Positions 5,582 to 57,900 of a DNA stretch of 64,000 nucleotides are shown in pieces. The DNA lies in assembly GCA_964432485.1 (NCBI GenBank), contig CAYSNP010000001.1, positions 22,043-86,042 of the forward strand. Reading direction: 5' to 3'. The notes under the pieces were generated by a model. The model saw nothing but the letters and a program-made list of their open reading frames with translations, did no database searches and was not told the DNA's origin. Source of the DNA: an uncultured Christensenellaceae bacterium. GTDB lineage: Bacteria > Bacillota > Clostridia > Christensenellales > DTU072. The position numbers and the translations under genes were made by a program. Positions within the stretch are counted from its first letter, which is position 1. Each line of letters begins with the position of its first letter.

Positions 5582-8204
5582 ATTATCACCAATGATGACT
5601 CATTACAAACAGCTTAAAAAGGACTATCCTGACACTATTATTTTTTATAGGTTAGGGGACTTTTACGAAATGTTTTTTGACGATGCGCTAATAGCTTCAG
5701 AACTGCTTGGGCTTACGCTAACCGGCAGAGATTGCGGACTGGAGCAAAGAGCGCCTATGTGCGGAGTGCCTTATCATGCGGCGGAAGGCTATATTGCCAA
5801 ACTGATTAATGCAGGGCAAAAAGTTGCAATTTGTGAGCAACTGACAGCCCCGGAAGACCAAAAAGGGCTTGTAGAGCGAGATGTGATTAAAGTAATTACC
5901 GCAGGCACTCTTACAGAAGAAAGTATGCTTGACGAGCGCGCCAACAACTACCTTGCTTGCGTATATCTTACCGATAAAGCGTATGCAATAGCCTGGTGCG
6001 ACATTTCAACGGGCGAATTTCAGGTGTTTGAGCAAAAGGGCAATGATTTTGCACAAATTGAGCAGCATCTTCTTAAAATCGAACCCAGTGAAATTATAGG
6101 CAACACCCTTTTTGCCGATAATAAGTTAAAGTTAGAGCTATTCAAAAGTGCGCATAATGTCTTTTTTCAGCAGTTTTACGATTATGCTTTTGATATAGAC
6201 AACGCCAAAGCAGCCATACTTACCCATACGGGAGCATATGACTTAAAGGTTTTTGGGCTGGAGGGCAAACCTATTGCCGCAGGATGCGCCGGAGCTTTGC
6301 TAGAGTATATTTATACCACGCAAAAGACAGCTATTGCGCATATCAATAATATTGTATACTTGAATCATAAAGACTATATGTTTTTGGATTACAATTGCAA
6401 GCGTAACTTAGAACTTACCCGTTCGATGTACGACAATAGCAAGCAAAACACCTTGCTTTGGGTACTTGATAACACTTATACCAGTATGGGCGCAAGAGAG
6501 CTTGTTAAGGTGATAGAAAATCCGCTGCTGGATTCTGATAAGATAAATAAGCGGCTTGACGCTGTGCAAGAGCTTATAGCATATGCTCCGCTTAGAGAAG
6601 AATTGGTGCTATATCTTAAAAAGATAAAAGATATAGAAAGAATGGCAAGCAAGATTGCTTTAGGCTCTGTTAAGCCCAGAGATTGCATAGCTATAGCGCA
6701 ATCTTTGGAGCAAATTCCAAAACTCAAGAAACTACTTTTCGGTTTTCGCTGTAGCTTACTTAATGCTTGTGCTGAAAATCTTAATTCTTTAGAGAATTTA
6801 TACAGTGAACTTTTTGCGGCAATTTGTATAGAGCCGCCTGCGCAAATAAGAGATGGCGGCTTTATTGCAAGCGGATATAACGAGTTGCTTGATGAGTATC
6901 GAGATGCACAAAATAAGGGCAAAAGTTGGATTGCGGAATACGAAGCTCAAGAACGTGAGCGCACCGGTATAAAGCTACTTAGAATCGGCTACAATAGGGT
7001 CTTTGGTTACTATTTAGAAATCCCCAATTCGCAACTGTCGCTTGCCCCTTATGCTTATCAGCGCAAGCAGACACTTTCTACCGGCGAGCGCTTTATAACT
7101 GAGGAGCTAAAAGCAGTTGAGGAGCGTATTTTGGGCGCAAGCGAAAAGGCTGTTGCCTTAGAGCTGGAATTGTTTAGCAACCTTATCAAAATCTTAAAAG
7201 GATATATTCAGCCGCTGCAAAGCAATGCTAAAATCATTGCTGCAATTGATGTGTTATGCTCATTTGCACAAGTGAGCATTCGTAACAATTACAGCAGGCC
7301 TACAATTAATAAAAAGGTTTCTGCAATAAATATCAAAAATGGCAGGCATCCCGTGCTAGAAGCGCTAATGGCAGAAAATGAATTTATTGCCAATGATACT
7401 TTTATAGATAAACAAGACCGCACCCATATTATTACGGGGCCGAATATGGCAGGCAAAAGTACATATATGCGACAAGTTGCGCTTATTACGCTTATGGCGC
7501 ATATAGGTTGTTTTGTCCCTGCAGATAAGGCGGAGATTGCATTGACGGATAAGATTTTTACTAGGGTAGGCGCAGGCGATAACCTTGCGCAAAGGCAAAG
7601 CACCTTTATGCTGGAAATGATAGAAGTGGCTAATATTCTCAATAACGCTACTCAAAAAAGTTTATTGATTTTAGACGAAATAGGACGAGGCACAAGCACC
7701 ATTGACGGACTATCTATTGCATGGGCTATTATGGAGTATATTACCGAAAAAATAAAGGGAAAGGCATTGCTTGCTACTCATTTTCATGAGCTTACCGAGC
7801 TGGAAAACTTTGCACCTCATGTAAAAAACTTTAGAATTCTGGTTAAAGAAGAAGGCGACGGAGTAGTTTTTCTTTACAAGATTAAGAGAGGGGGCACTAA
7901 CAAAAGTTTTGGTATCGAAGTTGCGGGACTTGCAGGAGTAAAAAGGCAAGTTATTCAAAGGGCAAAGGCAATTATGAACTCCTTGCTCCAATCGCATGAG
8001 TTTGGCGGCAATCTTAGAGAAAAGCTAAAAAATGCAGATGAAAATGAAGCAAGCAGCACAAGCGATTATAGCGATGATAAAAATATTTTGTTAGAAAATC
8101 TGTTAAACATAGTTGGGCAGGTAAAAATAGAGGATATAACACCTTTGGAAGCAGTATCAGCATTGGCGCAATTAAAAGCCTTGGCGGAAGGCAAAAATGG
8201 CTAA
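5574..8204 (+). CDS. mutS: DNA mismatch repair protein MutS
   Basis: GTG start preceded by GGGGGAGGG. N-terminus LSPMMTHYKQLK, Walker A GPNMAGKST, and DEIGRGTST. 876 aa. Confidence 0.97.
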   Translation: MSKLSPMMTHYKQLKKDYPDTIIFYRLGDFYEMFFDDALIASELLGLTLTGRDCGLEQRAPMCGVPYHAAEGYIAKLINAGQKVAICEQLTAPEDQKGLVERDVIKVITAGTLTEESMLDERANNYLACVYLTDKAYAIAWCDISTGEFQVFEQKGNDFAQIEQHLLKIEPSEIIGNTLFADNKLKLELFKSAHNVFFQQFYDYAFDIDNAKAAILTHTGAYDLKVFGLEGKPIAAGCAGALLEYIYTTQKTAIAHINNIVYLNHKDYMFLDYNCKRNLELTRSMYDNSKQNTLLWVLDNTYTSMGARELVKVIENPLLDSDKINKRLDAVQELIAYAPLREELVLYLKKIKDIERMASKIALGSVKPRDCIAIAQSLEQIPKLKKLLFGFRCSLLNACAENLNSLENLYSELFAAICIEPPAQIRDGGFIASGYNELLDEYRDAQNKGKSWIAEYEAQERERTGIKLLRIGYNRVFGYYLEIPNSQLSLAPYAYQRKQTLSTGERFITEELKAVEERILGASEKAVALELELFSNLIKILKGYIQPLQSNAKIIAAIDVLCSFAQVSIRNNYSRPTINKKVSAINIKNGRHPVLEALMAENEFIANDTFIDKQDRTHIITGPNMAGKSTYMRQVALITLMAHIGCFVPADKAEIALTDKIFTRVGAGDNLAQRQSTFMLEMIEVANILNNATQKSLLILDEIGRGTSTIDGLSIAWAIMEYITEKIKGKALLATHFHELTELENFAPHVKNFRILVKEEGDGVVFLYKIKRGGTNKSFGIEVAGLAGVKRQVIQRAKAIMNSLLQSHEFGGNLREKLKNADENEASSTSDYSDDKNILLENLLNIVGQVKIEDITPLEAVSALAQLKALAEGKNG

Positions 8205-10050
8205 AATAAACTTACTTGACAGCTCAATATTTAACTTACTTTCTGCCGGTGAAGTGGTGGAGAACCCTGCTTCTATTGTAAAAGAGCTAGTAGAAAACAG
8301 CATAGATGCGGGAGCTACCGAAATAAGCGTGAATATTTATGGCGGCGGCATAAAATCTATTGTTGTTACTGATAACGGAGTAGGGATAGAGCCCGATGAG
8401 TTGGAAAAAGCGGCATTGCCCCATGCTACAAGCAAAATTAAAGAAGCGCCAGATTTGCAAAGCATTGCAACTCTTGGATTTAGAGGAGAAGCCCTGCCCA
8501 GTATTGCCGCAGTATCCGAGTTGGAAATAAAATCCAAATATATAGATGCCGAGCATGCCAAAATGATAAAGATTAAAGGCGGCCAAATACTAGCTTCCCT
8601 TTCAACTTCTCTAGCTAAAGGCACTTCGGTAAAAGTCGGCAACTTATTCTTTAACACTCCTGCCCGCCTAAAGTTTTTAAAATCTCCGGGAGCGGAACAA
8701 GCGGCAATTACGCATACTTTAAAGAACTTGGCGCTTTCGCACCCTTTTATTGCATTTAGATATTTTCAAGAGGATAAAGAAGTTTTTTCCACTTACGGCA
8801 ATGGGCTGGAGGAAACGGCAAATATTATATATGGTAAAGAAATAGTAGGAAACTTAATTAAGATAGATATTGAGGATAGGGGAATATTTATACAAGGATA
8901 TATTAGCAGCCCAAAAATATTTAAGAATAATAAAAGGCAGCAAACGCTAATTATTAATTCCAGAGTACTATCTGCTCCGGAAGTGCAAGGTGCAATACAT
9001 AATGCTTATGCTCATAGATTAATGACTCGCTGCTACCCAATATATGTTTTGGATATTGTTATGCCATTTGACACCTTAGATGTAAATGTACATCCTCAAA
9101 AAGCAACTGTCAGGTTAGCCAATGCCCGCACCATTTGTTCTGTGGTTTATTATGCAGTAAAAAATGCTTTGGAGGAATATGAAAAGGCGCAAGTAGCACC
9201 TTTAACCTCTGCAAGCAACTTAAAAGCGGATGCTACTCAATTTATAAAAGAGCAAGTTGCCGCTGACAATGACAATGCAGAAAGCGTAATTCTTGACCAA
9301 AGCAGCAGCTTGCAAGACAGGCTCTTGAAAGCATATAAATACACTCCAAAGGAAAGCAATAGTAGCACTTTTGCACAAGAAAGGGCTGTCGGTATTGTTA
9401 GTGCCAAATCAAGCGACCCTTTGCTTGCGGCCAAGTTTAAAGAAAAAACTGCGCCCATTCAAGATGCTATGCATAGTCTGCCGCAAGATGCAACCTATAA
9501 AATCATAGGTCAAGCCTTTGACACTTATATTATAGTAGAAATGGGACAGGAGCTTATTTTTATTGACCAGCATGCAGCTCACGAGCGCATTATATTTGAT
9601 AGGATGCTTTCTGATTTTGCGCAAGGCGCTCCGTCACAACTGTTGCTTACTCCTTATATTTACAGTTGTCCATATGATGATATATCATATTTAACTGATT
9701 TTCTGCCTAATTTAGCTAAAGTTGGCTTTGAAATTGAGGAGTTTGGCGGCAATCATTTTAAAATTAGTGCAATACCTAATAATATTGTGGGCCTGGAGCT
9801 TACAGCATTTTTAGATAGCATACTAAAAGACAAATATTCCGACAGCAACGAGCTTTTAGAAGAATATATAGCCAAAAAAAGCTGTAAAGCGGCAATTAAA
9901 GGCGGCGATAGCCTAAATAAAGAGGAAATTGCCTATGTAATGGATTACTTTATAGCCAACTCTTTGCCAATGCATTGCCCTCATGGCAGACCTACCTTAA
10001 TTAAGTTTAAAAGAAAAGAATTAGAGGCCTTATTTGGCAGAATTAAATAA
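8197..10050 (+). CDS. mutL: DNA mismatch repair protein MutL
   Basis: GHKL ATPase motifs ELVENSIDAG and DNGVGI. The C-terminal dimerisation region carries QHAAHERI. The start overlaps the mutS stop by 8 nt. Confidence 0.95.
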   Translation: MAKINLLDSSIFNLLSAGEVVENPASIVKELVENSIDAGATEISVNIYGGGIKSIVVTDNGVGIEPDELEKAALPHATSKIKEAPDLQSIATLGFRGEALPSIAAVSELEIKSKYIDAEHAKMIKIKGGQILASLSTSLAKGTSVKVGNLFFNTPARLKFLKSPGAEQAAITHTLKNLALSHPFIAFRYFQEDKEVFSTYGNGLEETANIIYGKEIVGNLIKIDIEDRGIFIQGYISSPKIFKNNKRQQTLIINSRVLSAPEVQGAIHNAYAHRLMTRCYPIYVLDIVMPFDTLDVNVHPQKATVRLANARTICSVVYYAVKNALEEYEKAQVAPLTSASNLKADATQFIKEQVAADNDNAESVILDQSSSLQDRLLKAYKYTPKESNSSTFAQERAVGIVSAKSSDPLLAAKFKEKTAPIQDAMHSLPQDATYKIIGQAFDTYIIVEMGQELIFIDQHAAHERIIFDRMLSDFAQGAPSQLLLTPYIYSCPYDDISYLTDFLPNLAKVGFEIEEFGGNHFKISAIPNNIVGLELTAFLDSILKDKYSDSNELLEEYIAKKSCKAAIKGGDSLNKEEIAYVMDYFIANSLPMHCPHGRPTLIKFKRKELEALFGRIK

Positions 10051-10094
10051 TATAATTATAAAAATCAACCTAAAATAGAAGTATTAGGATAAGA

Positions 10095-11324
10095 ATGGAT
10101 ATAAATCAAGCACGCTTTTTAGTATTACAAGCCGAACAAGAAGCAAAAGACAGCTTTAGCACCATAGAGCAAATAGCATTATATAATCAAGAAAAAGTGC
10201 TGGAAGCATTTAGCAAAGCGAAAGTAGCTCAAAGGCATTTCTATCCCTCAACAGGTTATGGATATGATGATGCTTCTAGGCGCACCTTATCAGAAGTGTA
10301 TGCAAAATGCTTTAAGATAGAGGATGCATTAGTTTCACCGTTGATTTCAGGCGGTACAGGCGCTCTTTGCTTATCTTTATTTGGACTGTTGCGACCTTCT
10401 GACCTTATGCTATCTATTAGCGGCAAGCCTTATGAAACCCTTTCTAGGGTAATAAGCGGCTCTGGCACAGGCTCTTTGCAAGATTTTGGTATAAAATATC
10501 ACGAAATTGCTTTGGCTAATGGCGATTTTGATTTACAAGCAATATCAAAATATATTAAAGAAAATAAGGTAAAATTAGCTTATATACAACGCTCCAGAGG
10601 TTACGAGTTCCGAAGAGCATTAAGCGTAGAGCAAATAGGGCGTGTTTGCTCAATTATTAAGAAAATAGATCCAAATTGTATAGTTTTATGCGATAATTGC
10701 TATGGAGAGTTTACCGAATTATATGAGCCTAGCGAGGTTGGCGCAGACCTTATTATTGGCTCATTAATTAAAAATCCCGGTGGGGGGCTAGCGCCGACAG
10801 GCGGCTATGTAGCAGGTAAACTGGCATATATTGACGCAATTTCCGGCAAATTGACCGCTCCGTCAGTAGGGCGGGCTGTAGGTTCGTATGCGGCAAGCTA
10901 CCGACCATATTTTCAAGGGTTTTTTATGGCGCCTTCTACCGTAAGCTATGCCCTTAAAGGCAATGCTTTAGCTTCGTATATCTTTACCAAGTTAGGCTAT
11001 AATGTGCTTCCTCTGCCCGGCGAGATACCTCACGATATAGTTGTAGCAATTAAGTTTAATACCAAAGAAGAATTAATTGCATTTTGCCAATCTGTGCAAT
11101 ATGCCTCTCCGGTAGACGGTTTTGTTACAGCTTGCCCCGGACCAATGCCCGGATATAGTCATGAAGTAATTATGGCAGCAGGGACTTTTGTACAAGGCGG
11201 CTCATTGGAGCTTACCGCAGATGCTCCAATTAGAGAGCCATATATTGCATATCTGCAAGGCGGCCTAACCTATGAGCATATTAAAATTGCTCTTATAAAG
11301 ATATTGCAAAGTCTGGATAGATAA
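10095..11324 (+). CDS. YnbB-type PLP enzyme (methionine gamma-lyase / 'aluminium resistance' family)
   Basis: Motif HFYPSTGYGYDDASRRTLSEVYA and an overall length of 409 aa match the family usually found downstream of mutL in Firmicutes. Confidence 0.8.
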   Translation: MDINQARFLVLQAEQEAKDSFSTIEQIALYNQEKVLEAFSKAKVAQRHFYPSTGYGYDDASRRTLSEVYAKCFKIEDALVSPLISGGTGALCLSLFGLLRPSDLMLSISGKPYETLSRVISGSGTGSLQDFGIKYHEIALANGDFDLQAISKYIKENKVKLAYIQRSRGYEFRRALSVEQIGRVCSIIKKIDPNCIVLCDNCYGEFTELYEPSEVGADLIIGSLIKNPGGGLAPTGGYVAGKLAYIDAISGKLTAPSVGRAVGSYAASYRPYFQGFFMAPSTVSYALKGNALASYIFTKLGYNVLPLPGEIPHDIVVAIKFNTKEELIAFCQSVQYASPVDGFVTACPGPMPGYSHEVIMAAGTFVQGGSLELTADAPIREPYIAYLQGGLTYEHIKIALIKILQSLDR

Positions 11325-11453
11325 TAAGCCTTACAATAAGATATAATTACCTTTTAGCCCTATTTTGATAACAATACCCCCTATCTATTCGTTAAACCTG
11401 TATTTTGCGAATAGATTTATAACTTAAATTTCCTAGTACCCTATTCTGATTTC

Positions 11454-11561
11454 GTCTTTGCAGGGGACGCGTTAAGCAGGCTTGCCGGTGGCAAGTCTGT
11501 AGGGGGAGCCCACGAGCAAATGCGGGAGCATTGCGAGGGTATAATCAGTGAAGCAATCCAG
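11454..11561. repeat. family B copy 1 (108 bp)
   Basis: GTCTTTGCAGGGGACGCGTTAAGCAGGCTTGCCGGTGGCAAGTCTGTAGGGGGAGCCCACGAGCAAATGCGGGAGCATTGCGAGGGTATAATCAGTGAAGCAATCCAG. Confidence 0.9.
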
Positions 11562-11619
11562 TTCTAGAGCCTTAATCCCTATTTTCTCTTTTACATAAAG
11601 CAATCCAGGCCCCTAAAAA

Positions 11620-12075
11620 GTCATTGCGAGGCACGAAGCAATCCAGACTCCAGAGGGTTGCTCCCTGTTCTCCAGAGGCTTGCTCCTTATTTGCAGAGGC
11701 TTACTCCCTGCCCTACCAATCTCACCTTAACTTTTTGCCAAAGACAAAAAATCTCATTATGAGCCTCGCTCATAATATCATTTGCATAAGCAAATATAAC
11801 TTTGCGGCTTGTCCGCAAAATCTCATTGCACAGAGCCTTGCTCCCTTGTCTTTGCGAGGCACGAAGCAATCCAGACTCCAGAGGCTTTGCTCCCTGTTCT
11901 CCAGAGGCTTGCTCCTTGTTTGCAGAGGCTTCCTCCCTGCCCTACCAATCCCACCTTAACTTTTTGCCAAAGACAAAAAATCTCATTATGAGCCTCGCTC
12001 ATAATATCATTTGCATAAGCAAATATAACTTTGCGGCTTGTCCGCAAAATCTCATTGCACAGAGCCTTGCTCCTT
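11620..12075. repeat. family V, tandem pair 1 (two 228-bp units: 11620-11847 and 11848-12075)
   Basis: Each unit reads GTC(A/T)TTGCGAGGCACGAAGCAATCCAGACTCCAGAGG ... CCTTAAC, then four hairpins, then ATCTCATTGCACAGAGCCTTGCTCC. The period is exactly 228 bp. Confidence 0.9.
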
Positions 12076-12162
12076 ATTTTATTGTATTATGGTGAAGCTG
12101 TGCTTTGCGGGATTGATTGCTGGATTGCTTCGGCACTTTGTGCCTCGCAAAGACGTTAGAAA

Positions 12163-12270
12163 GTCATTGCAGGCGACGCGTTAAGCTGAGTTGCCAGTGG
12201 CAAGTCTGTAGGGGGAGCCCACGAGCAAATGCGGGAGCATTGCGAGGCTATAATCAGTAAAGCAATCCAG
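12163..12270. repeat. family B copy 2 (108 bp)
   Basis: Same order and length as copy 1, with about 8 substitutions. Confidence 0.9.
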
Positions 12271-12310
12271 CCCCAGAGCCCTACTCCTTGATTGCTGAGG
12301 CTTGCTCCTT

Positions 12311-12426
12311 GTTAAATTGCAGCAAACTCTCTAAATATCACCATATTGCTTTCGCACAAGAATAATTGTTCGTTATTACATTCAAATTGAATTTGCTTGT
12401 GTGCTCTGCACAAGAATAATTGTTCA
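12311..12426. repeat. family U module 1 (box - ATTCAAATTGAAT palindrome - box)
   Basis: GTTAAATTGCAGCAAACTCTCTAAATATCACCATATTGCTTT + box 12353-12372 + palindrome 12380-12392 + box 12407-12426. Confidence 0.9.
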
Positions 12427-12658
12427 AGTGCTTCTTTTTAATTTGAAATTCAGCAGTGCTTCGCGGGACTGGATTGCTTCGGCACTTTGTGCCTCGCAAA
12501 GACAAGCTGTGCTAGCGTATGCCCTAGATTGCTTTGTCGCGCTTGCTCCGCGCAATGACGATTTCCAATCCTTGTTGGTAATTATTTATGATGGAAAGCC
12601 CCTATTTCGTCTTTGCGAGCGACAGCGAAGCAATCCAGAGTTCGGAGGCCGGCTCCTT

Positions 12659-12776
12659 GTTAAATTGCAGCAAACTCTCTAAATATCACTATATTGCTTT
12701 CGAACAAGAATAATTGTCCGTAATCATATTCAAATTGAATTTGCTTAATTGCTTTCTGTACAAGAATGATTGTTCG
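12659..12776. repeat. family U module 2
   Basis: Same architecture as module 1; boxes at 12701-12720 and 12757-12776. Confidence 0.9.
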
Positions 12777-12912
12777 CAATCCAGACTCCAAAGGGTTGCT
12801 CCTTGTTCTCTAGAAGCTTTGCTTCTTGTTTTATTGCGTTATGGTGAGGCTATGCTTGCGTTTGCTCTGGTTTGCTTCGGCACTATCGTTCCTCGCAAAG
12901 ACGAGTTAGGAA

Positions 12913-13020
12913 GTCATTGCAGGCGGTGCGTTAAACAGGCTTGCCGGTGGCAAGTCTGTAGGGGGAGCCCGCGAGCAAATGCGGGAGCATTGCGAGGGTA
13001 TAATCAGTGAAGCAATCCAG
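12913..13020. repeat. family B copy 3 (108 bp)
   Basis: Preceded by the same CTGG(T/A)TTGCTTCGGCACTATCGTTCCTCGCAAAGACGAGTTAGGAA element as copy 4. Confidence 0.9.
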
Positions 13021-13060
13021 CCCCAGAGCCCTACTTCTTGATTGCTGAGGCTTGCTCCCT

Positions 13061-13176
13061 GTTAAGTGCAGCAAACTCTCTAAATATCACCATATTGCTT
13101 TTGCACAAGAAAAATTGTAAGTAATCACATTCAAATTGAATTTACTTAATTGCTTTTGCACAAGAATAATTGTTTG
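13061..13176. repeat. family U module 3
   Basis: Same architecture, with a 1-nt deletion (GTTAAGTGCAGC); boxes at 13102-13121 and 13157-13176. Confidence 0.9.
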
Positions 13177-13355
13177 AATACTTCTTTTTTAATCTGCAAT
13201 TTAGCAAGGCTAACGCTTGCTTTGGATTGCTTCGGCACTAATGTTCTTCGCAAAGCCGGTTTATAATACTTTTTTTTAAATATTTATGGTGCAATGCCCT
13301 AGTTCGTCTTTGCGAGCAGTAGCGAAGCAATCCAGATTCCAGAGGCTTGCTCCTT

Positions 13356-13472
13356 GTTAAGTTGTAGCAAACTCTCTAAATATCGCCATATTGCTTTCGT
13401 ACAATAATAATTGTTCGCAATCATATTCAAATTGAATTTGCTTAATTGCTTTTGCACAAGAATAATTGTTCA
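13356..13472. repeat. family U module 4
   Basis: Boxes at 13398-13417 and 13453-13472. Confidence 0.9.
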
Positions 13473-13562
13473 ATATCTCTTTTTTAATCTGTAATTAGGC
13501 AACGCTTACACTTATCCTGGATTGCTTCGGCACTATCGTTCCTCGCAAAGACGAGTTAGGAA

Positions 13563-13670
13563 GTCATTGCAGGCGGTGCGTTAAGCAGGCTTGCCGGTGG
13601 CAAGTCTGTAGGGGGAGCCCGCGAGCAAATGCGAGAGCATTGCGAGGGTATAATTAGCGAAGCAATCCAG
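13563..13670. repeat. family B copy 4 (108 bp)
   Basis: About 96% identical to copy 3 across 13517-13670 versus 12867-13020. Confidence 0.9.
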
Positions 13671-13691
13671 ACTCCAGAGGGTTGCTTCCTT

Positions 13692-14127
13692 GTCTTTGCG
13701 AGGCACGAAGCAATCCAGACTCCAGAGGGTTGCTCCCTGTTCTCCAGAGGCTTGCTCCTTATTTGCAGAGGCTTACTCCCTGCCCTACCAATCTCACCTT
13801 AACTTTTTGCCAAAGACAAAAAATCTCATTATGAGCCTCGCTCATAATATCATTTGCATAAGCAAATATAACTTTGCGGCTTGTCCGCAAAATCTCATTG
13901 CACAGAGCCTTGCTTTCTTGTCTTTGCGAGCGGTAGCGAAGCAATCCAGACTCCAGAGGGTTGCTCCCTGTTCTCCAGAGGCTTTGCTTCTTGCCCTACC
14001 AATCCCACCTTAACTTTTTGCCAAAGGCAAAAAATCTCATTATGAGCCCCGCTCATAATCTCATTTGCAAGGCAAATCTCACTTTGCAACTTGTTGCAAA
14101 ATCTCATTGCACAGAGCCTTGCTCCCC
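13692..14127. repeat. family V, tandem pair 2 (13692-13919, 228 bp; 13920-14127, 208 bp with a 20-bp internal deletion)
   Basis: 13692-13919 is nearly identical to 11620-11847. The fourth unit is the most diverged and carries compensatory stem changes. Confidence 0.9.
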
Positions 14128-14174
14128 GTCTTTTCGAGGCACGAAGCAATCCAGACTCCAGAGGGTTGCTCCCT

Positions 14175-14291
14175 GTTAAGTTGCAGCAAACTCTCTAAAT
14201 ATCACCATATTGCTTTCGCACAAGTATAATTGTCCGCAATCATATTCAAATTGACTTTGCTTAATTGCTTCTGCACAAGAATAATTGTTTG
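14175..14291. repeat. family U module 5
   Basis: Boxes at 14217-14236 and 14272-14291. Confidence 0.9.
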
Positions 14292-14967
14292 AATACTTCT
14301 TTTTTAATCTGCAATTCAGCAAGGCTAACGCTTGCCCTGGATTGCTTCGGCACTTTGTGCCTCGCAAAGACAAGCTGTGCTAGCGTATACCCTGGATTGC
14401 TTTGTCGCTTTCGCTCCGCGCAATGACGGTTTATAAACCTTTTCGGTTGTTTTTTAAGGTGCAATATCCCTATTTTGTCTTTGTGTGCGATAGCAAAACA
14501 AAGATATTTTGATTTATTCAAATTGAATTTGTTTAATTGCTTTCAACACAAGAATAATTGTTCGTAATCTAAACTCCAAAGGGTGCTGCCTGTTTTATTG
14601 TGTTTTGTGAAGATGTGCTTCGACTGGATTGCTCCCTATTTTATTGTGTTATGTGAAGCCCTGCTTGCGTGGGGTTGGATTTATAAACAAGGAGCAGTAC
14701 TAGCGCAGGTCCTTTTGCACAAGAATAATTGTTCAAGTGCTTCTTTTTAATTTGAAATTCAGCAGTGCTTCGCGGGACTGGATTGCTTCGGCACTTTGTG
14801 CCTCGCAAAGACAAGCTGTGCTAGCGTATGCCCTAGATTGCTTTGTCGCGCTTGCTCCGCGCAATGACGATTTCCAATCCTTGTTGGTAATTATTTATGA
14901 TGGAAAGCCCCTATTTCGTCTTTGCGAGCGACAGCGAAGCAATCCAGAGTTCGGAGGCCGGCTCCTT

Positions 14968-15085
14968 GTTAAGTAGCAGCAACCTCGCTAAATATCGCCA
15001 TATTGCTTTCGAACAAGAATAATTGTCCGTAATCATATTCAAATTGACTTTGCTTAATTGCTTTTTGCACAAGAATAATTGTTCG
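14968..15085. repeat. family U module 6
   Basis: Boxes at 15010-15029 and 15066-15085. A partial module (palindrome plus one box) lies at about 14513-14564. Confidence 0.9.
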
Positions 15086-15440
15086 AATGCTTCTTTATTT
15101 TATTGAGTTATGGTGAAGCTGTGCTTCGTGGGACTGGATTGCTTCGGCACGATACACGCTAAGGCGCGATGAAATGCACTTGCCATATGCAAGTGTTGAA
15201 ATACATTTATTGCATAAATGGTGCAATACACGCTAAAGCGTGGTGAAATACATTTGCTTTTGCAAATGATTAAGGTGAGATTTATAAACAAGGAGCAAGT
15301 GCTAGCGCAAGTCCTTCCGCACAAGAATAATTGTTCTCAATCCAGACTCCAAAGGGTTGCTCCCTATTTTATTGTATTATGTGAAGCCCTGCTTGCGTGG
15401 GGCTGGATTGCTTCACGATGTTTGCAAAGACAATATTATC

Positions 15441-15468
15441 TTGATTCCTTCCTGATTTGTGTTATAAT
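15441..15468 (+). promoter_or_regulatory. putative strong sigma-A promoter of the recombinase gene (TTGATT-N16-TGtTATAAT)
   Basis: TTGATT at 15441-15446, extended -10 TG at 15460-15461, and TATAAT at 15463-15468. The ATG at 15475 is the 7th nt after the hexamer, and there is no SD. Confidence 0.5.
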
Positions 15469-15474
15469 CAAAGT

Positions 15475-16530
15475 ATGGACAGCAATTACTTTAGCAATCT
15501 AAAAAGAGAGCAATATTTTAAGCTAAATGAGTTATTAAACTCCCTACCCTCTTTTTGCAGAATGTTTTTTATTGGTATTGAGGGGGGGACGGAGGTTCTT
15601 ACACGCTTGGGTTATGCTAGGGATTTAATGATTTTTTTTGATTTTTTAGTCAAAGAAATGCCTGACCTTGATAAGGGTAAAGTAGCTGATATTACTTTAG
15701 CTGATTTGGCAAAGGTGCAAGCTATACATATAGAGCGGTATTTAAGTTATCTTTCTTATTACACCTTTAATAATAAAAGGCTATCCAATGGCGAAAGGGC
15801 AAAGGCACGAAAACTAAGTGCAATTCGCTCCCTATTTAAGTACTTATATAATAAGGACTTATTGCCTGAAAATGTGTCTGAAAAGGTGCAAACCCCTAAA
15901 TTGCATAGCAAAGAAATTGTACGACTAAATGAAGCCGAAATAGTAACTATGCTTGACAATATTGATGAGACCGCTTTCCCCTCTGATAGGCAAAGGACAT
16001 ATAATAAACATACACGTATAAGAGATAATGCTATTATTACGCTAATGCTTACCACAGGTATAAGGATAAGCGAATGTGCGGGGCTGGATTTTCAAGATAT
16101 TGATTTAGAAAATCACTCTTTTATAGTGACACGCAAAGGCGGCAATAGAGCAATACTCTATTTTTCTAATGAAACAGCGCAAGCTCTTGAGGCATATTTT
16201 GATGAGCGTGAAGTTAAATTATCTTCTCTTGGCAAGTCTATTCAAGGTCCCCTATTCCTTTCTTTGCAAAACAAGCGTCTAAGCGTTAGAGCTATTCAAA
16301 ACATAGTTAAAAAGTATGCCACAATAAGCGCACCGCTTAAAGAGATTTCGCCCCATAAGCTAAGGAGTACTTATGGCACACAGCTATATCGCAGCACCAA
16401 AGATATATATGTAGTTGCAGAAGTGCTTGGGCATAAGGATATTAACACAACCAAAAAGCATTATGCCGCAATAAGCGAGGATATTAAAAGAGAAGCATCT
16501 AATAAAGTAATTCTGCGTAAACAAAAGTAA
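15475..16530 (+). CDS. tyrosine-type site-specific recombinase (XerC/XerD-like integrase family)
   Basis: Catalytic signature TGIRISE (Arg), HKLRSTYGT (H-x-x-R), and LGHKDINTTKKHY (His...Tyr). An N-terminal SAM-like core-binding region is present. ATG at 15475 is preferred over the TTG at 15457. Confidence 0.85.
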   Translation: MDSNYFSNLKREQYFKLNELLNSLPSFCRMFFIGIEGGTEVLTRLGYARDLMIFFDFLVKEMPDLDKGKVADITLADLAKVQAIHIERYLSYLSYYTFNNKRLSNGERAKARKLSAIRSLFKYLYNKDLLPENVSEKVQTPKLHSKEIVRLNEAEIVTMLDNIDETAFPSDRQRTYNKHTRIRDNAIITLMLTTGIRISECAGLDFQDIDLENHSFIVTRKGGNRAILYFSNETAQALEAYFDEREVKLSSLGKSIQGPLFLSLQNKRLSVRAIQNIVKKYATISAPLKEISPHKLRSTYGTQLYRSTKDIYVVAEVLGHKDINTTKKHYAAISEDIKREASNKVILRKQK

Positions 16531-51915: not shown

Positions 51916-54900
51916 ATGGAATACCTTTATTTGCTTTTAGCTTTGGTAGGCTTAGCCTTTGTTTTAATGATACTCTCCAATAAAAGAGAAAATATTGAAA
52001 AAATACAAATGCGCACCCTTTCTGAGGAGGACTTTGCTGCCGGAATCAGAGCTAAAGCAAGAGATTTTAGAAGTCTTTCGCATGGGAGAGGTGTAAACAT
52101 TTTTGCGCTTTCTCACCAAATCAATAAGGCTATTCAAAGCATTAACAGAAAGAATAATGCAAATCGTCCGCTTTTTGAACATGAAAGATGGCTATATGAG
52201 AACTACTATTTAGTGCGCAGATATATGGCGGCGCATCATAATAGAAGTTTTAACAGGCTGCCTAATTCCAATCAGCAAATCCGAATATTAGAATTTGCAC
52301 GGTTTATTGTGGCTAACAGTACGGAAAACCTAACACAAGAACGGGTGCTTGCCGCCATTAAAATGATAAATAATGAAACATCGCTGTACCTTAACGAAAT
52401 AATGAATTTTAAAAAAGCTATTACTTATGCGCTAATCGAACAAATATATATATTGAGCGAAAGAGTCATTTACCATAACAAAATGGCTCGGCAAGCCAAT
52501 AAAAAGCTGTTTAAGGGAGAGCACTTACGCAGCGATATTTATGCCCATTACGCCTTAAAGAATCCTCGTTTAAGCGCAGCCGCTCATTCAGAGCTGCTAA
52601 AAATGGGCGTGGAGTCCAAAAGCATAGACTACAATTACAGCCTTTCTATATTGGAAAGCACCAAAATGGCAAAAAGCCTTTTTAAGTCCTTAATGCATAT
52701 CAACAGCTTATTTAATGAGGATGTGCTAATCAATCATTTGAATATTTCAAAAGTGCTTAATAAAGATGACCAATATGCCAATATGAGTTTGGACACTAAA
52801 AAGAATTACCTATCAATAATTGAAAGAATAAGTTCTAAACTTAATGTCAGCGAACTGCTAACTGCTAATAAACTGATAGAATTGGCAAGATATAACGATA
52901 TTTATTTTGGCGAAATCCTTTCCGGTCACCCTAAGCGATTGTACTGCTTTATAAAGAATAATAAGCTTGTTAAAATTAAGGTCAGGCCAAGTTTTAGAAA
53001 CGAATGTGTTTATATAACAGCTTTAAGCGTTTTGGCTCTTGCTGCTGCTTTTGGGTTTGGCTGGCTTTACCGCAGCGTATGGTTAGGGCTGCTTAGCCTA
53101 GTACCTATTTTCTTTATAGCAGAAAAGCTCATAAATGCCGTATTGTCCGCCATTGTCAATTCCAGAAATATCCCAAGTATGAACTATACCTCTATCCCCA
53201 ACGAGTGCAATACCTTAATTGTAATTTCGCAATTTATTGGCGATAGAGCGCAGCTTGAGGAAGCACTTGCTCACTTGCGAGCAGTTAAGGAAAGTAATAA
53301 TGATAAAAATATACAAACTTCTTTATTAATAGATTTTAAGAGCAGCAAAAAGGAAATTGACCCTCAAGACTCAATTCTGCTAGAAATGTTAAGACAATTT
53401 GAAGGTGAGGCGGGCTTTAATATCTTTGTGCGAAAACGCTCTAAAATTGGTGATAAATATGCAGGCTGGGAAAGAAAACGAGGGGCAATAATGGCGCTTG
53501 CCCGCTATTTGGTTACCGGTGATTCCAAAGATTTCTTTTATGTTTGCAATCGCAATGCGCCTTCGCCTAAGTATATCATAGTATTAGATGATGACAATGT
53601 AATGCTCCCCGGTGCGGCAAAGGAGCTTATTAACTTAATAGCTCACCCCGGTAATGCCGGCTATGATTTAATAGCCACCAGAAGCAAGTTCAATTTGTAT
53701 TCAATCAAGACTCCCTTTTCTCGGCGTTTTTTGGCGGAAAGCGGGGTAGAAGCATATCCTAATTACAGCTCGCTTTACTTTAACTTATTTAAGAAAGACA
53801 TTTTTTGCGGCAAAGGGATTTTTCGGCTAAAGGAGTTTTATAATAAATTAGACGGTATCTTCCCATCCAATAAGATATTGAGCCACGACATTATAGAAGG
53901 TGCAATATTGTCAACAGCAAGCACTTCCTTTATTTATGAAAATGCACCTAAGAACTTTGTTTCAGAAAAAGAGCGCAGAACCCGTTGGGCAAGAGGCGAC
54001 ATAGAACTGCTGCCCTTTATTTTATGCAAATGGAATAACGATGAAAAAGATATTTACAAGTCAGAAATCAGCCCTTTTTATAAGTTTATAATAATAAAAA
54101 ATGCACTTAATATTCTTTTGCCTGCCTTTGTACTGGCTATCGTAATCCTCTTTTTTGTCAATCCTTCAATTTGGCTGCTTGCAGGAATTACCGTCCTTTC
54201 TGCACTTGTAATTGATTGGATAACTGCTTTGCGCAGAGCCAAGGACGGAATAAGGCTAAGATATATCCTGCTGCAAATATGGACCAGCGCATACTTAACT
54301 GCAGAAATGCTGTTATTGCTGCCTTTTGAAGCCTACCATGGCATTAAAACCTTTATAGTTACAGCAGTAAAAATGATAAAAAAAGGCAATTTGCTGGAAT
54401 GGAAAACTTATTATTCTTCTCAAAAAGCCTCTGGATTTTTGAAATTTGTTACTTTAACCGCCCCTTCTATGCCTATAATGTTAATAGTTGCTATTATTTT
54501 AACTTTGCTGCGTGTAAATATAGCCGCATTAGCAATTTTTACCCTTTTATCATACTTGTATTTGCCTTTACTATATTTGCTTGGCCTAGAAAAAGCGGAA
54601 AGGAGCTTAACTGAAAAAGATAAAAAGCTACTGGGCGATTATGCTGTCAAAACATATAATTATTTTAAGTTTATGAATAACAATATGGATTTGATTGCAG
54701 ATAATTTACAGCTAAAACCTTATAAAGGAACATCGGAAACAACTTCTCCCACTAATATCGGATATAGCTTGCTTGCCGAAGTTTGCGCATATTATCTTAA
54801 ACTAAACGAATTGGAAAATGTAATAGACAATATTGAAAAAACCTTAAACAAAATTACTGTACTGCAAAAATGGAATGGCAACCTATACAATTGGTACTAT

Positions 54901-57900
54901 GTAAAGAATGGCGAGGTTGCGCAAAAGTTTGTATCCAGCGTAGATAGCGGCAACCTAGTAGCGTCATTGATAGTTGTAACAGAGTTCTTAAAAGAACATA
55001 ATGCTTCAATGCTTGCAAAAAAGGCTCAAACCATTATAGATAATACTAATTTAAGCAGTTTGTATGACAATACTGCCAATCTATTTTATTTAGGTTACTA
55101 CCCTAATGAAAATCGATTTGAAGGAGCGTATGACTTGCTGGCTTCCGAGTCCCGCCTGCTAAGTTTAATATATATTGCTTATGGCGGGTCTATTGCACAT
55201 TATAGAGAATTGACTCGTGACTATACCCCTATTCGGGGCAACACCCTGTATTCTTGGTCCGGCACTGCATTTGAATACTTAATGCCCTCGCTGTTTATTA
55301 AACCGCCTCCGTATTCGTTACTCGACCATTCCTGCAGGAATGCGGTAAGCGCACAAAAAAAGGTAAGAAAGAAGCGTACTTGGGGCATAAGCGAAAGCGG
55401 ATATTACAGCTTTGATGAGGACTTAAAATATCAATATAAAGCCTTTGGCGTCAATGATTTATCACTTGATATAGATAAAAATGAAGTGGTGCTTTCTCCA
55501 TACAGCAGCTTTTTAGCATTGGATATTTCACCCCGCAGCGTAATTAAAAACCTAAAAAGGCTGCAAAAAGCCGGGGCTTACGGCGAATATGGATTTTATG
55601 AATCTATAGATTTTATTAATAAAAAGCAAATTGTATCTTCATTTATGACCCATCATCAAGGGATGATAATTGCATCCTTAGCAAACTTTTTGACCGCTGG
55701 CGCTATTGAAAAATTAATGTTAAGGAATCCTAAGATAGAGGGAATAAAAATTCTGCTGTCGGAACGAACCAGCCAACAAGTGTACAGACGCAAGCAAAAA
55801 GATAAAAAGATACAAGCTAAAAGGGACAATTCTAAGTTTAGCGAAAGCTATATGCACCTAAAAGATAAGCTATACAGCGGCGGGCTTTCTAACGGTACAA
55901 TTACGGGCTTTTATGATAGCAATGGCAATAGTTTTCTAAAATATCAAGATATCTTTATTAATAAGTTTAGAGCGGATTATCAATCAGTATATGGTGGAGT
56001 CTTTTACATTAAGCAAAACAACAAACTGTACTCTCCCACTTATTACCCTTTAGCAGGCGATAAAGAAAATTATGTTTTTACAGTAAACAGCGATAGTATT
56101 AATTATGCCAATACCAAAGATAAGGTATCCTTGGATATTGCAATAGACGACGATTTTAATGCAGAGGTAAAACGGTTGACACTTGGTACTAATAACCAAA
56201 ATCCTACCGTGTACTTTTTTGAAGAATTGGCAGTAAGCAAAGCAGAAGAGCACGAAGCACACCAAACCTTTTGCAATATGTTTATTAGCACAAGCATTGA
56301 TAAAGAAAAAAATGTGGTCTTAGTGCACCGTAAAGCAAGAGGGAAGAAAGGCGATATTTATATAGCTTATATAATAAGGGGACTAAAAGACTTAGAAATA
56401 GAGACCAATCGGTTTAACTTTATTGGCCGCAAAAGAGAGGAGCATACCCCCGCTTTTATTTTTGATAAGCATATCAAATACAATTCGGAAGGAGATGTGC
56501 TAGAGCCTTGTATTGGCTTTGCCGGCAAATTCAAAAAGCGTGAAGGTGCGGGATACAAGTGCGAAATTATCAAGATAGTTGACGAAAACAAAGATAGCTT
56601 ACTCAATTTGATAGACTTGATACCTTCAGATTTTTATGAGTATGCACTTGAGAAATCTACTCAATTTATCTTTCATAAACAGGCCGGAGCTCTTGCCGCT
56701 TCATTGTTGTACAAGCCTTATTCCAAAGAGGCCCTAAGATTTGTTATGGAAAACGACCTTCTAAAGGAGTTTATTGAGCTAACCGACTTCAAAAAGACAA
56801 TACTGTTTTATTTTAACGATATAGAAGATACCGAAAAGCTGTTAACGCTATGCTCAATAATCAACAGCTTGTATTTATTTAACATTAAGGTCAGACCTAT
56901 TATAATTTATAAGGAGTCTTTTGATAAAAATATTAAAGAGCATATTGAGGAAAAATTAAAAAGATACTTTATAATTAATTATAAATTAATTGAATCAAAT
57001 GAGGAAAAAAGCTATATAGCAGAGTTTGCTTTTATTACGCTAAACGAGAATCTTGCTATAAATGAAAGTGTTTTTATAGATAAAAGACGCCAAAGTTTGC
57101 CTAATCAAGCGGCAAAAGTTGAAAAAGACAAAGAACATTGGGGCTTAGAATCCGGAGTCGGCAGTTTTGATGCGGAAGGCAACTATATTATAGATAATAC
57201 AAGGACAACGGACTTGCCATACTCAAATATTGTAGCAGGCAGATATGGGGGCTTTGTAATTACAGAAAATGGCGGCGGTTTTACCTACTTTGAAAACAGC
57301 AGAGAAAATAAAGTTACCCGCTTTGAAAATGACCCAATTAAAGATATAGCTTATGAACAGTTGCTTTTATGCTCAGACGACAATTTTAGACTTAATTGCA
57401 GCTCGCACCATACTATAGTTACTCATAACTTAGGCAGCACAGTTTTTGCAACTAAATTGAATGAATTGCAAATAAACAGCGAGTTTTATATTATTGAAGA
57501 GGGCAAAGTTAAAGTAATAGAGGTCTCTGCCCGTCAAAAAAATATGGATAACTTATGCTTTTCGTATATTATTGATTGCGCTTTAGGGTGGAAGCATGAA
57601 GATACTTTTCTGTACACATATTTTGAAGAAGATATCCTTAAAGTGATAAACCTTAAAAACTCACAAAGCGTATATATTAAAATCATTGGCAGCAATACAA
57701 CCGTCAATTATAATGAAAATAAAGCACTGCCCAATCTTTTAATTAAAATTGATAAGCCTTTATCTCAAAACAAGTTTTATATTGTTATGTCAAGCAGGCT
57801 TGAGAACATTTTGGAGCTATCTGCTGAAAAAATTGATTATAAAAAAGAAGAAGGACTACAGTATTATAAAAATCTGTCTAATATAGAACTATCCAGCAAT

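Follow-up and report, generated by a model that had tools for sequence, protein, structure and literature searches.

Four-hairpin arrays in an intergenic repeat cluster

The window analysed here is a 64-kb stretch (64,000 nucleotides) of contig CAYSNP010000001.1 from an uncultured Christensenellaceae bacterium. A mosaic repeat cluster lies in this window between a Met-gamma-lyase-family gene (10095-11324), preceded by miaB, mutS and mutL, and a gene for a Xer-like tyrosine recombinase (15457-16530), followed by lexA and a padR-family gene. The cluster is bounded by the inverted termini GTCTTTGCAGG... and ...TGCAAAGAC and is made up of about 12 repeat families in both orientations. Four of its units, numbered V1 to V4, each carry a chain of four short, adjacent hairpins (H1 to H4). 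This chain, called the V array, is the main subject of this analysis, together with two sister arrays designated K and M. The positions of the arrays and of related features are collected in Table 1.

Table 1. Features of the repeat cluster and of related loci. Positions are those of the window unless a metagenome contig (L number) is named; ORF, open reading frame.
Feature	Position	Strand	Details
Mosaic repeat cluster	11454-15431	.	3,978 bp; no long ORF supported as a gene
V units 1 and 2	11620-12073	-	Tandem repeat, period 229 bp; also repeat family D2
Bracket (TIR-like, i.e. terminal-inverted-repeat-like) module, example	11620-11646	+	GTCATTGCGAGGCACGAAGCAATCCAG; repeat family D5
22-nt tandem repeat inside V unit 1	11648-11710	.	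CTCCAGAGGCTTGCTCCCTGTT, 2.9 copies
Further copies of the 22-nt repeat	11876-11939, 13720-13782		CTCCAGAGGCTTGCTCCCTGTT
H1 of V unit 1	11732-11750	-	TTTTTG/CAAAAA
H2 of V unit 1	11756-11776	-	Perfect 9-bp stem, ATTATGAGC-CTC-GCTCATAAT, 3-nt loop
H3 of V unit 1	11780-11795	-	ATTTGC-ATAA-GCAAAT, loop hypervariable
H4 of V unit 1	11801-11819	-	TTTGCGG-CTTGT-CCGCAAA, derived GG/CC form
Four-hairpin array, V unit 2	11961-12048	-	Same sequence as unit 1 array
Four-hairpin array, V unit 3	13804-13891	-	Same sequence as unit 1 array
Four-hairpin array, V unit 4	14015-14100	-	Copy closest to the family consensus
K array	15154-15282	+	Five hairpins, CACGC.., CACTTGC.., CATTTAT.., CACGC.., CATTTGC..; orientation opposite to V
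Gut-1 match	14029-14109	-	39.3 bits, E 2e-5, model positions 1-77 of 77
Gut-1 match, sub-threshold	11746-11828	-	32.6 bits, E 1e-3
Gut-1 match, sub-threshold	13818-13900	-	32.6 bits, E 1e-3
M arrays	L005 10457-10636; L006 2761-2896; L008 14208-14341; L012 7221-7349 and 7790-7897; L014 1746-1856; L015 1065-1171

An earlier note on this DNA had placed four consecutive stem-loops at 11732-11819 in V unit 1, had reported the same four in units 2 and 3, and had described a diverged unit, here V4, with TTTTTGCC-AAA-GGCAAAAA as its first hairpin and CCC as the loop of its second. Sequence inspection and a census of hairpins with stems of at least 5 bp and loops of 3-7 nt bore out all of these placements, and the arrays of units 2 and 3 proved identical to that of unit 1. 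Read on the minus strand, H1 of V unit 1 is UUUUUGUC-UUU-GGCAAAAA with one G.U pair, and the family consensus of this hairpin is TTTTTGCC/GGCAAAAA. Across the family the minus-strand H2 loop is made of purines, apart from 3 T in the per-nucleotide count, and the H4 family consensus is TTTGCAA/TTGCAAA. V4 has AAG as its H3 loop and TTTGCAA-CTTG-TTGCAAA as its H4. V units 1 and 2 repeat in tandem with a period of 229 bp and 97% matches (Tandem Repeats Finder), and each is composed of a bracket module (described below), three 22-nt repeats, the four-hairpin array and a tail.

The minimum-energy fold of a 101-nt segment consisted of exactly the four hairpins on either strand, whether it was folded as RNA or as DNA, and the four hairpins were retained when the entire 229-nt unit was folded. 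As RNA, the plus strand folded at -23.5 kcal/mol (z -4.77) and the minus strand at -36.0 kcal/mol (z -5.67), the minus-strand fold being stronger because G.U pairs lengthen three of its stems. The DNA folds had z scores of -6.15 and -6.84, and 0 of 200 shuffled sequences folded as well as the real segment. In the census, three or more hairpins followed one another at eight places in the whole window, seven of these within 11.7-15.3 kb. The hairpin arrays are not a product of chance. A coding role for the units was rejected: ORFs across them had no homologue among 5.8 billion proteins, and the period of the hairpins is not divisible by three.

In the two closest relatives found (L002 and L003, 75-77% identity) the same genes are separated by a spacer of only 230-280 bp that is free of repeats, which indicates that the cluster is a lineage-specific expansion in a conserved housekeeping neighbourhood. 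As far as these sequences tell, it is a pile-up of repeat modules peculiar to this lineage, with the module order as assembled, and no copy of its modules was found elsewhere in the window. Homologues of the Xer-like recombinase at 55-60% identity number in the thousands, with annotations from Christensenellales and other Clostridia. Since the recombinase gene keeps its neighbours in the cluster-free relatives, there is no specific link between recombinase and cluster.

Several other features of the cluster and of its surroundings were recorded. A 39-nt unit with GCACAAGAATAATTGT (family D7), a further abundant part of the cluster, occurs in 12 copies between 12333 and 15336, within modules of 116-173 bp (D1 and D4). 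The 174-nt module D3 has four copies (11388-11561, 12097-12270, 12847-13020 and 13497-13670); it appears to be a long version of the bracket module, contains a 10-bp hairpin, CAGGCTTGCC-GGT-GGCAAGTCTG, and a GGGTATAAT box, and is kept in two metagenome contigs, L006 and L014. In the relative L002 (5800-9770) miaA lies between mutL and the Met-gamma-lyase-family gene, a position where the window (8197-11324) lacks it. Far from the cluster, a very long ORF of 2,471 amino acids occupies 51916-59331 on the plus strand. Extension of the source contig through its end genes returned short contigs only.

Copies outside the window and variation among V arrays

JGI metagenomes were scanned with a pattern for H2 in which the loop was left free, and 12 contigs (L004-L015) were recovered. 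These contain 17 V arrays, which brings the total to 21 with the four of the window, and the copies are 91-100% identical to their consensus. The contigs have a similar GC content (about 40%), and they have only the repeats in common with the window. On these contigs the repeats form small intergenic patches next to ordinary genes, among them genes for a hybrid-cluster protein (HCP), EF-Tu, MnmG, MnmA, a PfkB kinase, GH88, a nucleoside hydrolase, a phosphoribosyltransferase and a thioesterase, as well as others. This distribution is as expected for an interspersed repeat. One contig with arrays, L012, also carries an unrelated c-di-GMP-I riboswitch (12801-12890, minus strand), which scored 63.9 bits, above the gathering score.

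No copy was found in two exact-pattern scans of 185,579 species-representative reference genomes. A short-read (Logan) assembly of the same sample, L001, breaks about 175 nt past the upstream gene (near window position 11498), in the first repeat module, and the breaking of assemblies by the repeats probably explains their absence from reference genomes. Phage records and viral contigs had no similarity to the repeats, and the sole match in a plasmid collection was a 40-nt hit to the bracket module. On the outcome of these searches a phage or plasmid origin was ruled out.

Alignment of the 21 V arrays (alignment A1) showed a sharp contrast between stems and loops. Stem positions pair in 99.5% of cells, and this falls to 43-49% if each is set against a partner shifted by 1-3 columns. 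The minor-allele fraction averages 0.024 for stem, 0.068 for linker and 0.208 for loop positions, so that loops are about nine times more variable than stems. Of the 29 core stem pairs, 23 are invariant, and two, the inner two of H4, are changed on both sides, in what amounts to one event. These two pairs are AA/TT in 17 of the 21 copies, including V4, GG/CC in V1-V3 of the window, and GG/TT in one contig copy (L004b), an intermediate with two G.U pairs that are possible only on the minus strand, the one on which the arrays match the Gut-1 RNA motif (see below). Because AA/TT is the family consensus, V4 has the ancestral form and the GG/CC of V1-V3 is derived. Elsewhere, three stem changes keep pairing through G.U on the same strand (H1 of window V1-V3, H1 of L010 and H2 of L013a), and two break it (H2 of L004a and H4 of L011).

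These results bear on two proposals of the earlier note. It had read a compensatory exchange in H4 of the diverged unit, and this is a true double change in which pairing is kept and the arms are as described; its direction is the reverse, AA/TT being the consensus and GG/CC derived, and the difference also includes a 1-nt deletion that shortens the loop from 5 to 4 nt. The note had further suggested selection on structure rather than on primary sequence. The first half of this agrees with the maintained pairing and with loops that vary about nine times as much as stems, and the 23 invariant pairs speak against the second half.

Some loops differ between copies by exact reverse complementation: CAAG versus CTTG in H4 of L014 and L015a, and TGT versus ACA in H1 of L007 versus L009a. 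Judged from their sequences, these loop flips are DNA-level events at the hairpins, and correction of palindromes at the DNA level may be compatible with the pairing data.

Sister arrays, bracket modules and the Gut-1 motif

Arrays are described here in their Gut-1 orientation, which for V1-V4 of the window is the minus strand. In this orientation the V array consists of the linker (A/G)TGA(T/G)AT alternating with the hairpins TTTGCAA.., ATTTG.., ATTATGAGC.. and TTTTTGCC.., followed by GTTAAGGTGG. The K array has the linker (A/G)TGAAAT(A/G), the hairpins CACGC.., CACTTGC.., CATTTAC.. and CATTTGCG.., and then ATTAAGGTG. In the K array of the window, (G/A/T)TGAAAT(A/G) linkers stand between the hairpins and the terminus is ATTAAGGTGAGAT; this array lies about 160 bp upstream of the predicted promoter (15441-15468) of the Xer-like gene. 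A covariance model of the V array also detected K arrays, on the same strand and with E values of 1e-4 to 1e-2 (in the window at 15199-15281, E 2e-3), and the linkers plus part of the stems of V and K were aligned by MAFFT; V and K are therefore diverged homologues. The M array, which occurs on metagenome contigs and not in the window, has 4-9 hairpins from a small set (CCACC, CCGCC, TTGCC, TCGCC, CATTGC and TCAATGC) and is built of tandem 23-27-nt units, each a constant TACATAATG linker plus a mini-hairpin.

Comparison of the array types revealed more paired differences than were seen within V. At least five compensatory pair differences separate homologous hairpins of V and K, in an alignment that is not structure-exact; three pairs differ between V-H1 and K4 and one between V-H3 and K3, all of them compensated. 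The K3 stem itself is CATTTAC/GTAAATG in the contigs and CATTTAT/ATAAATG in the window. The hairpin types of M likewise differ by compensated transitions (CCACC/GGTGG versus CCGCC/GGCGG, and TTGCC/GGCAA versus TCGCC/GGCGA). Broader support for a conserved structure comes solely from the sister K arrays and from Gut-1, whose stems are different in sequence yet complementary.

Each payload array is flanked by inverted modules of the form GTCWTTGCGAG..(variable)..GAAGCAATCCAG, called bracket modules. Some 30 of these modules cover the cluster, running in both directions (11848-11874 and 13692-13718 are examples, 12469-12503 an inverted one). Back-to-back brackets are about 10 nt apart, and a payload may face either way with respect to the short and long bracket versions. 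Units are arranged as inverted-bracket elements as well as head-to-tail tandems, the latter being seen in the window. The literature was searched for the bracket-module sequence without a relevant result. Over 40 nt the bracket module (CTGGATTGCTTTGTCGC..CTCCGCGCAATGAC) shows 92.5% identity to a palindrome between genes of Methylocystis rosea plasmids, ..CGCGAGCGCAACGAAGCAATCCA-loop-CTGGATTGCTTCGTCGCTTACGCTCCTCGCAATGAC (window 14391-14430; L018 2455-2540); the bracket motif thus appears to be common to the clostridial lineage and an alphaproteobacterium. On L005 an IS5-like insertion sequence (IS; 10941-11833) lies inside a bracket module as GTCATT|IS|ATTGCGCGG, with ATT duplicated. Two overlapping ORFs of this IS encode HTH_Tnp_4 and DDE_Tnp_4 domains, and its ends, 17 bp in length, read AG(G/A)GTTGTAGCGAAATG. 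Its insertion into a bracket module means that the repeats serve as IS targets, as repetitive extragenic palindromic (REP) elements do.

A permissive Rfam scan of the cluster related the V array to Gut-1 (RF01706, gathering score 50 bits), and no other Rfam family was found in the cluster at E below 0.8. Two metagenome loci also matched Gut-1, L013 with 37.5 bits and L014 with 36.2 bits. In the window, L013 and L014 the alignments span the whole model with all pairs canonical. H4, H3 and H2 correspond to the three hairpins of Gut-1, and GUGAAAU has its counterpart in the UGAGAU/UGAUAU linkers; the array linkers CAAUGAGAU, GUGAGAU and AUGAGAU align to UGAAAU of the model, so that the consecutive hairpins and linkers which characterise Gut-1 are present. 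Since the curated threshold is not reached, the V array was treated as a divergent relative of Gut-1 and not as a member. Beyond what the earlier note had described, then, the array matches a known motif and is a module of an interspersed repeat.

In its original description Gut-1 is a likely non-coding RNA (ncRNA), not cis-regulatory, with 43 representatives found only in human-gut metagenomes and with no proposed function (Weinberg et al. 2010, PMC2864571). A literature search for later work on Gut-1 found none. In its seed alignment the hairpins vary, the linkers are GUGAAAU or GUGAUAU, and inverted arrays, linked by AUAUCAC, lie alongside. Gut-1 and the V array are alike in forming a chain of short hairpins on a near-constant, purine-rich linker, (A/G)UGA(U/G)AU in the V array, and in both the stems vary among copies yet stay complementary. 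Both are known only from uncultivated bacteria. They are unlike in that the V array has four hairpins plus the conserved GTTAAGGTGG tail where Gut-1 has three hairpins, and in that the V array is a module of an interspersed, bracketed mosaic with the sisters K and M, whereas Gut-1 was described as a free-standing ncRNA.

Strand signals, explanations and comparison with known elements

Several signals distinguish the two strands of the arrays. On the Gut-1 strand the H2 loops contain 0 C and 3 T among 63 nucleotides, and the M-array loops are G..A (GNNA or GNA) in 34 of 46 hairpins, while the complementary T..C is seen in 0 of 46. All ten metagenome loci with two or more arrays have them co-oriented; the window, with four V arrays one way and the K array the other, departs from this. 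Together these signals argue, from sequence, for a functional single-stranded form of one particular strand, as RNA or single-stranded DNA (ssDNA) alike. In seven cases (L008, L012, L015, L009, L013 twice and L014) an array begins 6-50 nt past a stop codon in the sense (Gut-1) orientation, and there are two or three antisense cases (L006, L007 and the window). The arrays showed no preference for either direction with respect to the strand of most genes, which stood in for replication (6 versus 5).

The explanation favoured here starts from the anatomy of the arrays, their family relationships, their dispersal on many contigs, the contrast between stems and loops, and the strand-specific loops. 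It holds that the V array is a module of lineage-specific, interspersed, intergenic mosaic repeats and works through a single-stranded form of the Gut-1 strand, RNA being the likeliest, and we give this statement, taken as a whole, about an even chance of being right. The hairpin chain, on the minus strand of the window, is kept in its stems and linkers and left free in its loops. The RNA would most likely be reached by read-through from the upstream gene, and a series of stable hairpins could then impede exonucleases or end transcripts, by analogy with REP elements. Duplication and recombination among bracket modules would have built the 4-kb pile-up in what is otherwise a 0.25-kb spacer, so the window cluster itself may be an amplified by-product, possibly a functionless set of copies.

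A number of observations weigh against this explanation. Every Gut-1 match is below the gathering score of 50 (the best is 39.3), the primary sequence of the stems is itself conserved, and the V copies are only 0-9% diverged, so that covariation within V comes down to one event. GNA and GNNA loops are exceptionally stable in ssDNA also, and the loop asymmetry is therefore no proof of RNA. The sense bias after stop codons, 7 versus 2-3, is not significant (p about 0.1), and each of the four V arrays of the window lies antisense to the gene on either side, with the K array facing the other way. Among mismatches on the Gut-1 strand G.U outnumbers A.C by 7:1 in the V and M arrays; once the K arrays are added, with four A.C and one G.U, the tally becomes about 8:5, which is not significant, and the attempt to assign the strand of function from these mismatches was dropped. 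No minus-strand promoter-like site was found in the cluster.

Some of the same evidence could be read as a sign that the hairpins act as ssDNA in propagating the repeats, either through recognition by HUH/Y1 enzymes, as with REP/RAYT, IS200/IS605 and PATE, or as structures in the lagging-strand template. The copies are dispersed, intergenic and in any orientation to genes, and their presence or absence differs among relatives. The stems consist almost entirely of Watson-Crick pairs and as DNA fold equally well from either strand, the loop flips are DNA-level events at extruded hairpins, and the strand-specific G..A loops of the M arrays are of the GNA/GNNA kind that forms very stable DNA mini-hairpins. 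A constant short linker also stands before every hairpin, as GTAG does before REP hairpins. Propagation by this route is nevertheless rather unlikely: no Y1/RAYT gene was found in the window or in any locus scanned, the sole transposase seen is that of the IS5-like DDE element, which has unrelated ends and is inserted in a bracket module, no target-site duplications were found at the element ends, and array orientation is nearly even with respect to the majority gene strand (6 versus 5).

It is improbable that the arrays are stand-alone small RNA genes of a Gut-1 family whose repeated linkers offer an RNA-binding protein a multivalent platform or a sponge, as CsrB/RsmZ do. The units are not delimited by a promoter or a clean terminator; they are embedded in a repeat mosaic, as tandems and as inverted payloads, directly after stop codons, and the three array types carry three different linkers. 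Such genes would fit the resemblance to Gut-1, which its discoverers classed as ncRNA and not cis-regulatory, the conserved linkers (minor-allele fraction 0.068) and the strand-specific loop composition. The H4 intermediate, which pairs by G.U only on the Gut-1 strand, would fit as well, against which stands the lack of significance in the asymmetry of G.U versus A.C.

We see a comparably slim chance that the hairpins are functionless palindromes in selfish or junk repeats, kept by intrastrand template switching (quasi-palindrome correction), by gene conversion and by the youth of the copies. Correction alone predicts stems that drift about as fast as loops, whereas the fractions are 0.024 and 0.208. 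The linkers are conserved too, loop composition is strand-biased, and the hairpin design survives the much deeper divergence of V, K, M and Gut-1. Several facts do agree with an absence of function: the copies are 91-100% identical to their consensus, 23 of 29 pairs are invariant, the loop flips and multi-nucleotide loop changes suggest template switching, and the double change in H4 could be one templated event. Finally, duplex protein-binding sites, such as operator palindromes, Xer-like recombinase sites or integron attC-like sites, are very improbable, since the tyrosine recombinase gene that begins 26 bp after this inverted-repeat-rich cluster is a conserved housekeeping Xer-like gene with the same neighbours in cluster-free relatives and fails the integron-integrase model (62 bits versus a cut-off of 265), other array copies are not beside recombinases, and four different palindromes with free central bases and strand-biased loops are unlike sites for one dimeric protein.

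A wider and speculative proposal, to which we attach a low probability, is that Gut-1, V, K and M represent an unrecognised class of elements, in which interchangeable mini-hairpins present a constant single-stranded linker (UGAKAU, GUGAAAUA or UACAUAAUG) as multivalent platforms for a dedicated protein that binds RNA or ssDNA. Such an element might work as a sponge or decoy, or a new hairpin-dependent mobilisation system might use it as its handle, and the hypervariability of its loops might be permitted or even promoted.

Gut-1, an orphan motif since 2010, was known only from fragments of human-gut metagenomes, and the window and the related contigs provide the first genomic setting for a Gut-1-like array, in a Christensenellales-like clostridial chromosome. 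If the favoured explanation of the V array as a module of intergenic mosaic repeats is correct, Gut-1-type motifs would be recast as repeats resembling REP elements and bacterial interspersed mosaic elements (BIMEs) instead of classical small RNA genes. The defined strands, the linkers and the filled and empty sites are material for tests of RNA versus ssDNA. On the practical side, the repeats break short-read assemblies.

The REP elements and BIMEs of Enterobacteria and Pseudomonas are short intergenic palindromes, often just after stop codons, in mosaic clusters. The arrays described here are similarly dispersed intergenic palindromes that form mosaics of variable copy number and alternating orientation and are IS targets. 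On the 12 metagenome contigs they stand beside housekeeping genes; the window has a single cluster and, in its other 60 kb, no further copy. They are unlike REP in having hairpins of 5-9 bp rather than about 15 bp, in chaining several different hairpins by a constant linker, and in their clostridial host. In place of GTAG the linkers are TGA(T/G)AT, GTGAAATA or TACATAATG, and no Y1/RAYT transposase gene was found among the scanned flanking ORFs of the window and the metagenome loci.

Miniature inverted-repeat transposable elements (MITEs) with internal arrays of palindromes exist, for example Chunjie of Geobacter. The present elements resemble these in being small and non-coding, about 260-520 bp long, with hairpins set between terminal inverted repeats of about 30-45 bp (as at L014 1419-1900), and GTCWTTGCGAG..GAAGCAATCCAG and its inverse bracket both the payloads and the whole cluster. 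The ends of the window cluster, and those of the L008 and L014 elements, showed no direct repeat that could be a target-site duplication. A parent IS sharing these ends was not found; the only IS, that of L005, has different 17-bp ends, and its transposase was rejected as the parent transposon because it was simply inserted into a module. Because the ends often abut at a fixed spacer of about 10 nt, they are equally readable as internal palindromes, unlike those of a MITE. Two other candidates were discarded. An integron does not agree with the TIGR02249 score of the recombinase given above, its best partial matches being to XerS, XerC and XerD, or with the presence of this gene without the array in relatives. 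A CRISPR array intersperses spacers of about 30 nt that vary with a repeat that does not; here the logic is reversed, the 5-9-nt linker being constant and the hairpin variable, and the period is only 18-27 nt.

Neisseria intergenic mosaic elements (NIMEs) consist of RS units flanked by dRS3 inverted repeats, and the pneumococcal BOX is a comparable mosaic. In these as in the present cluster, payloads of 50-150 bp are set in short conserved inverted repeats and form kilobase arrays in gene-free spacers, and from copy to copy the modules are reshuffled, duplicated and turned round. Their sequences are not similar, the payloads here are regular hairpin arrays, and these arrays have no link to phage integration or to surface-antigen loci. 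While the element lacks the features specific to REP elements and to MITEs, its anatomy and distribution suggest, by analogy, that it works like the REP/BIME, NIME or BOX mosaics.

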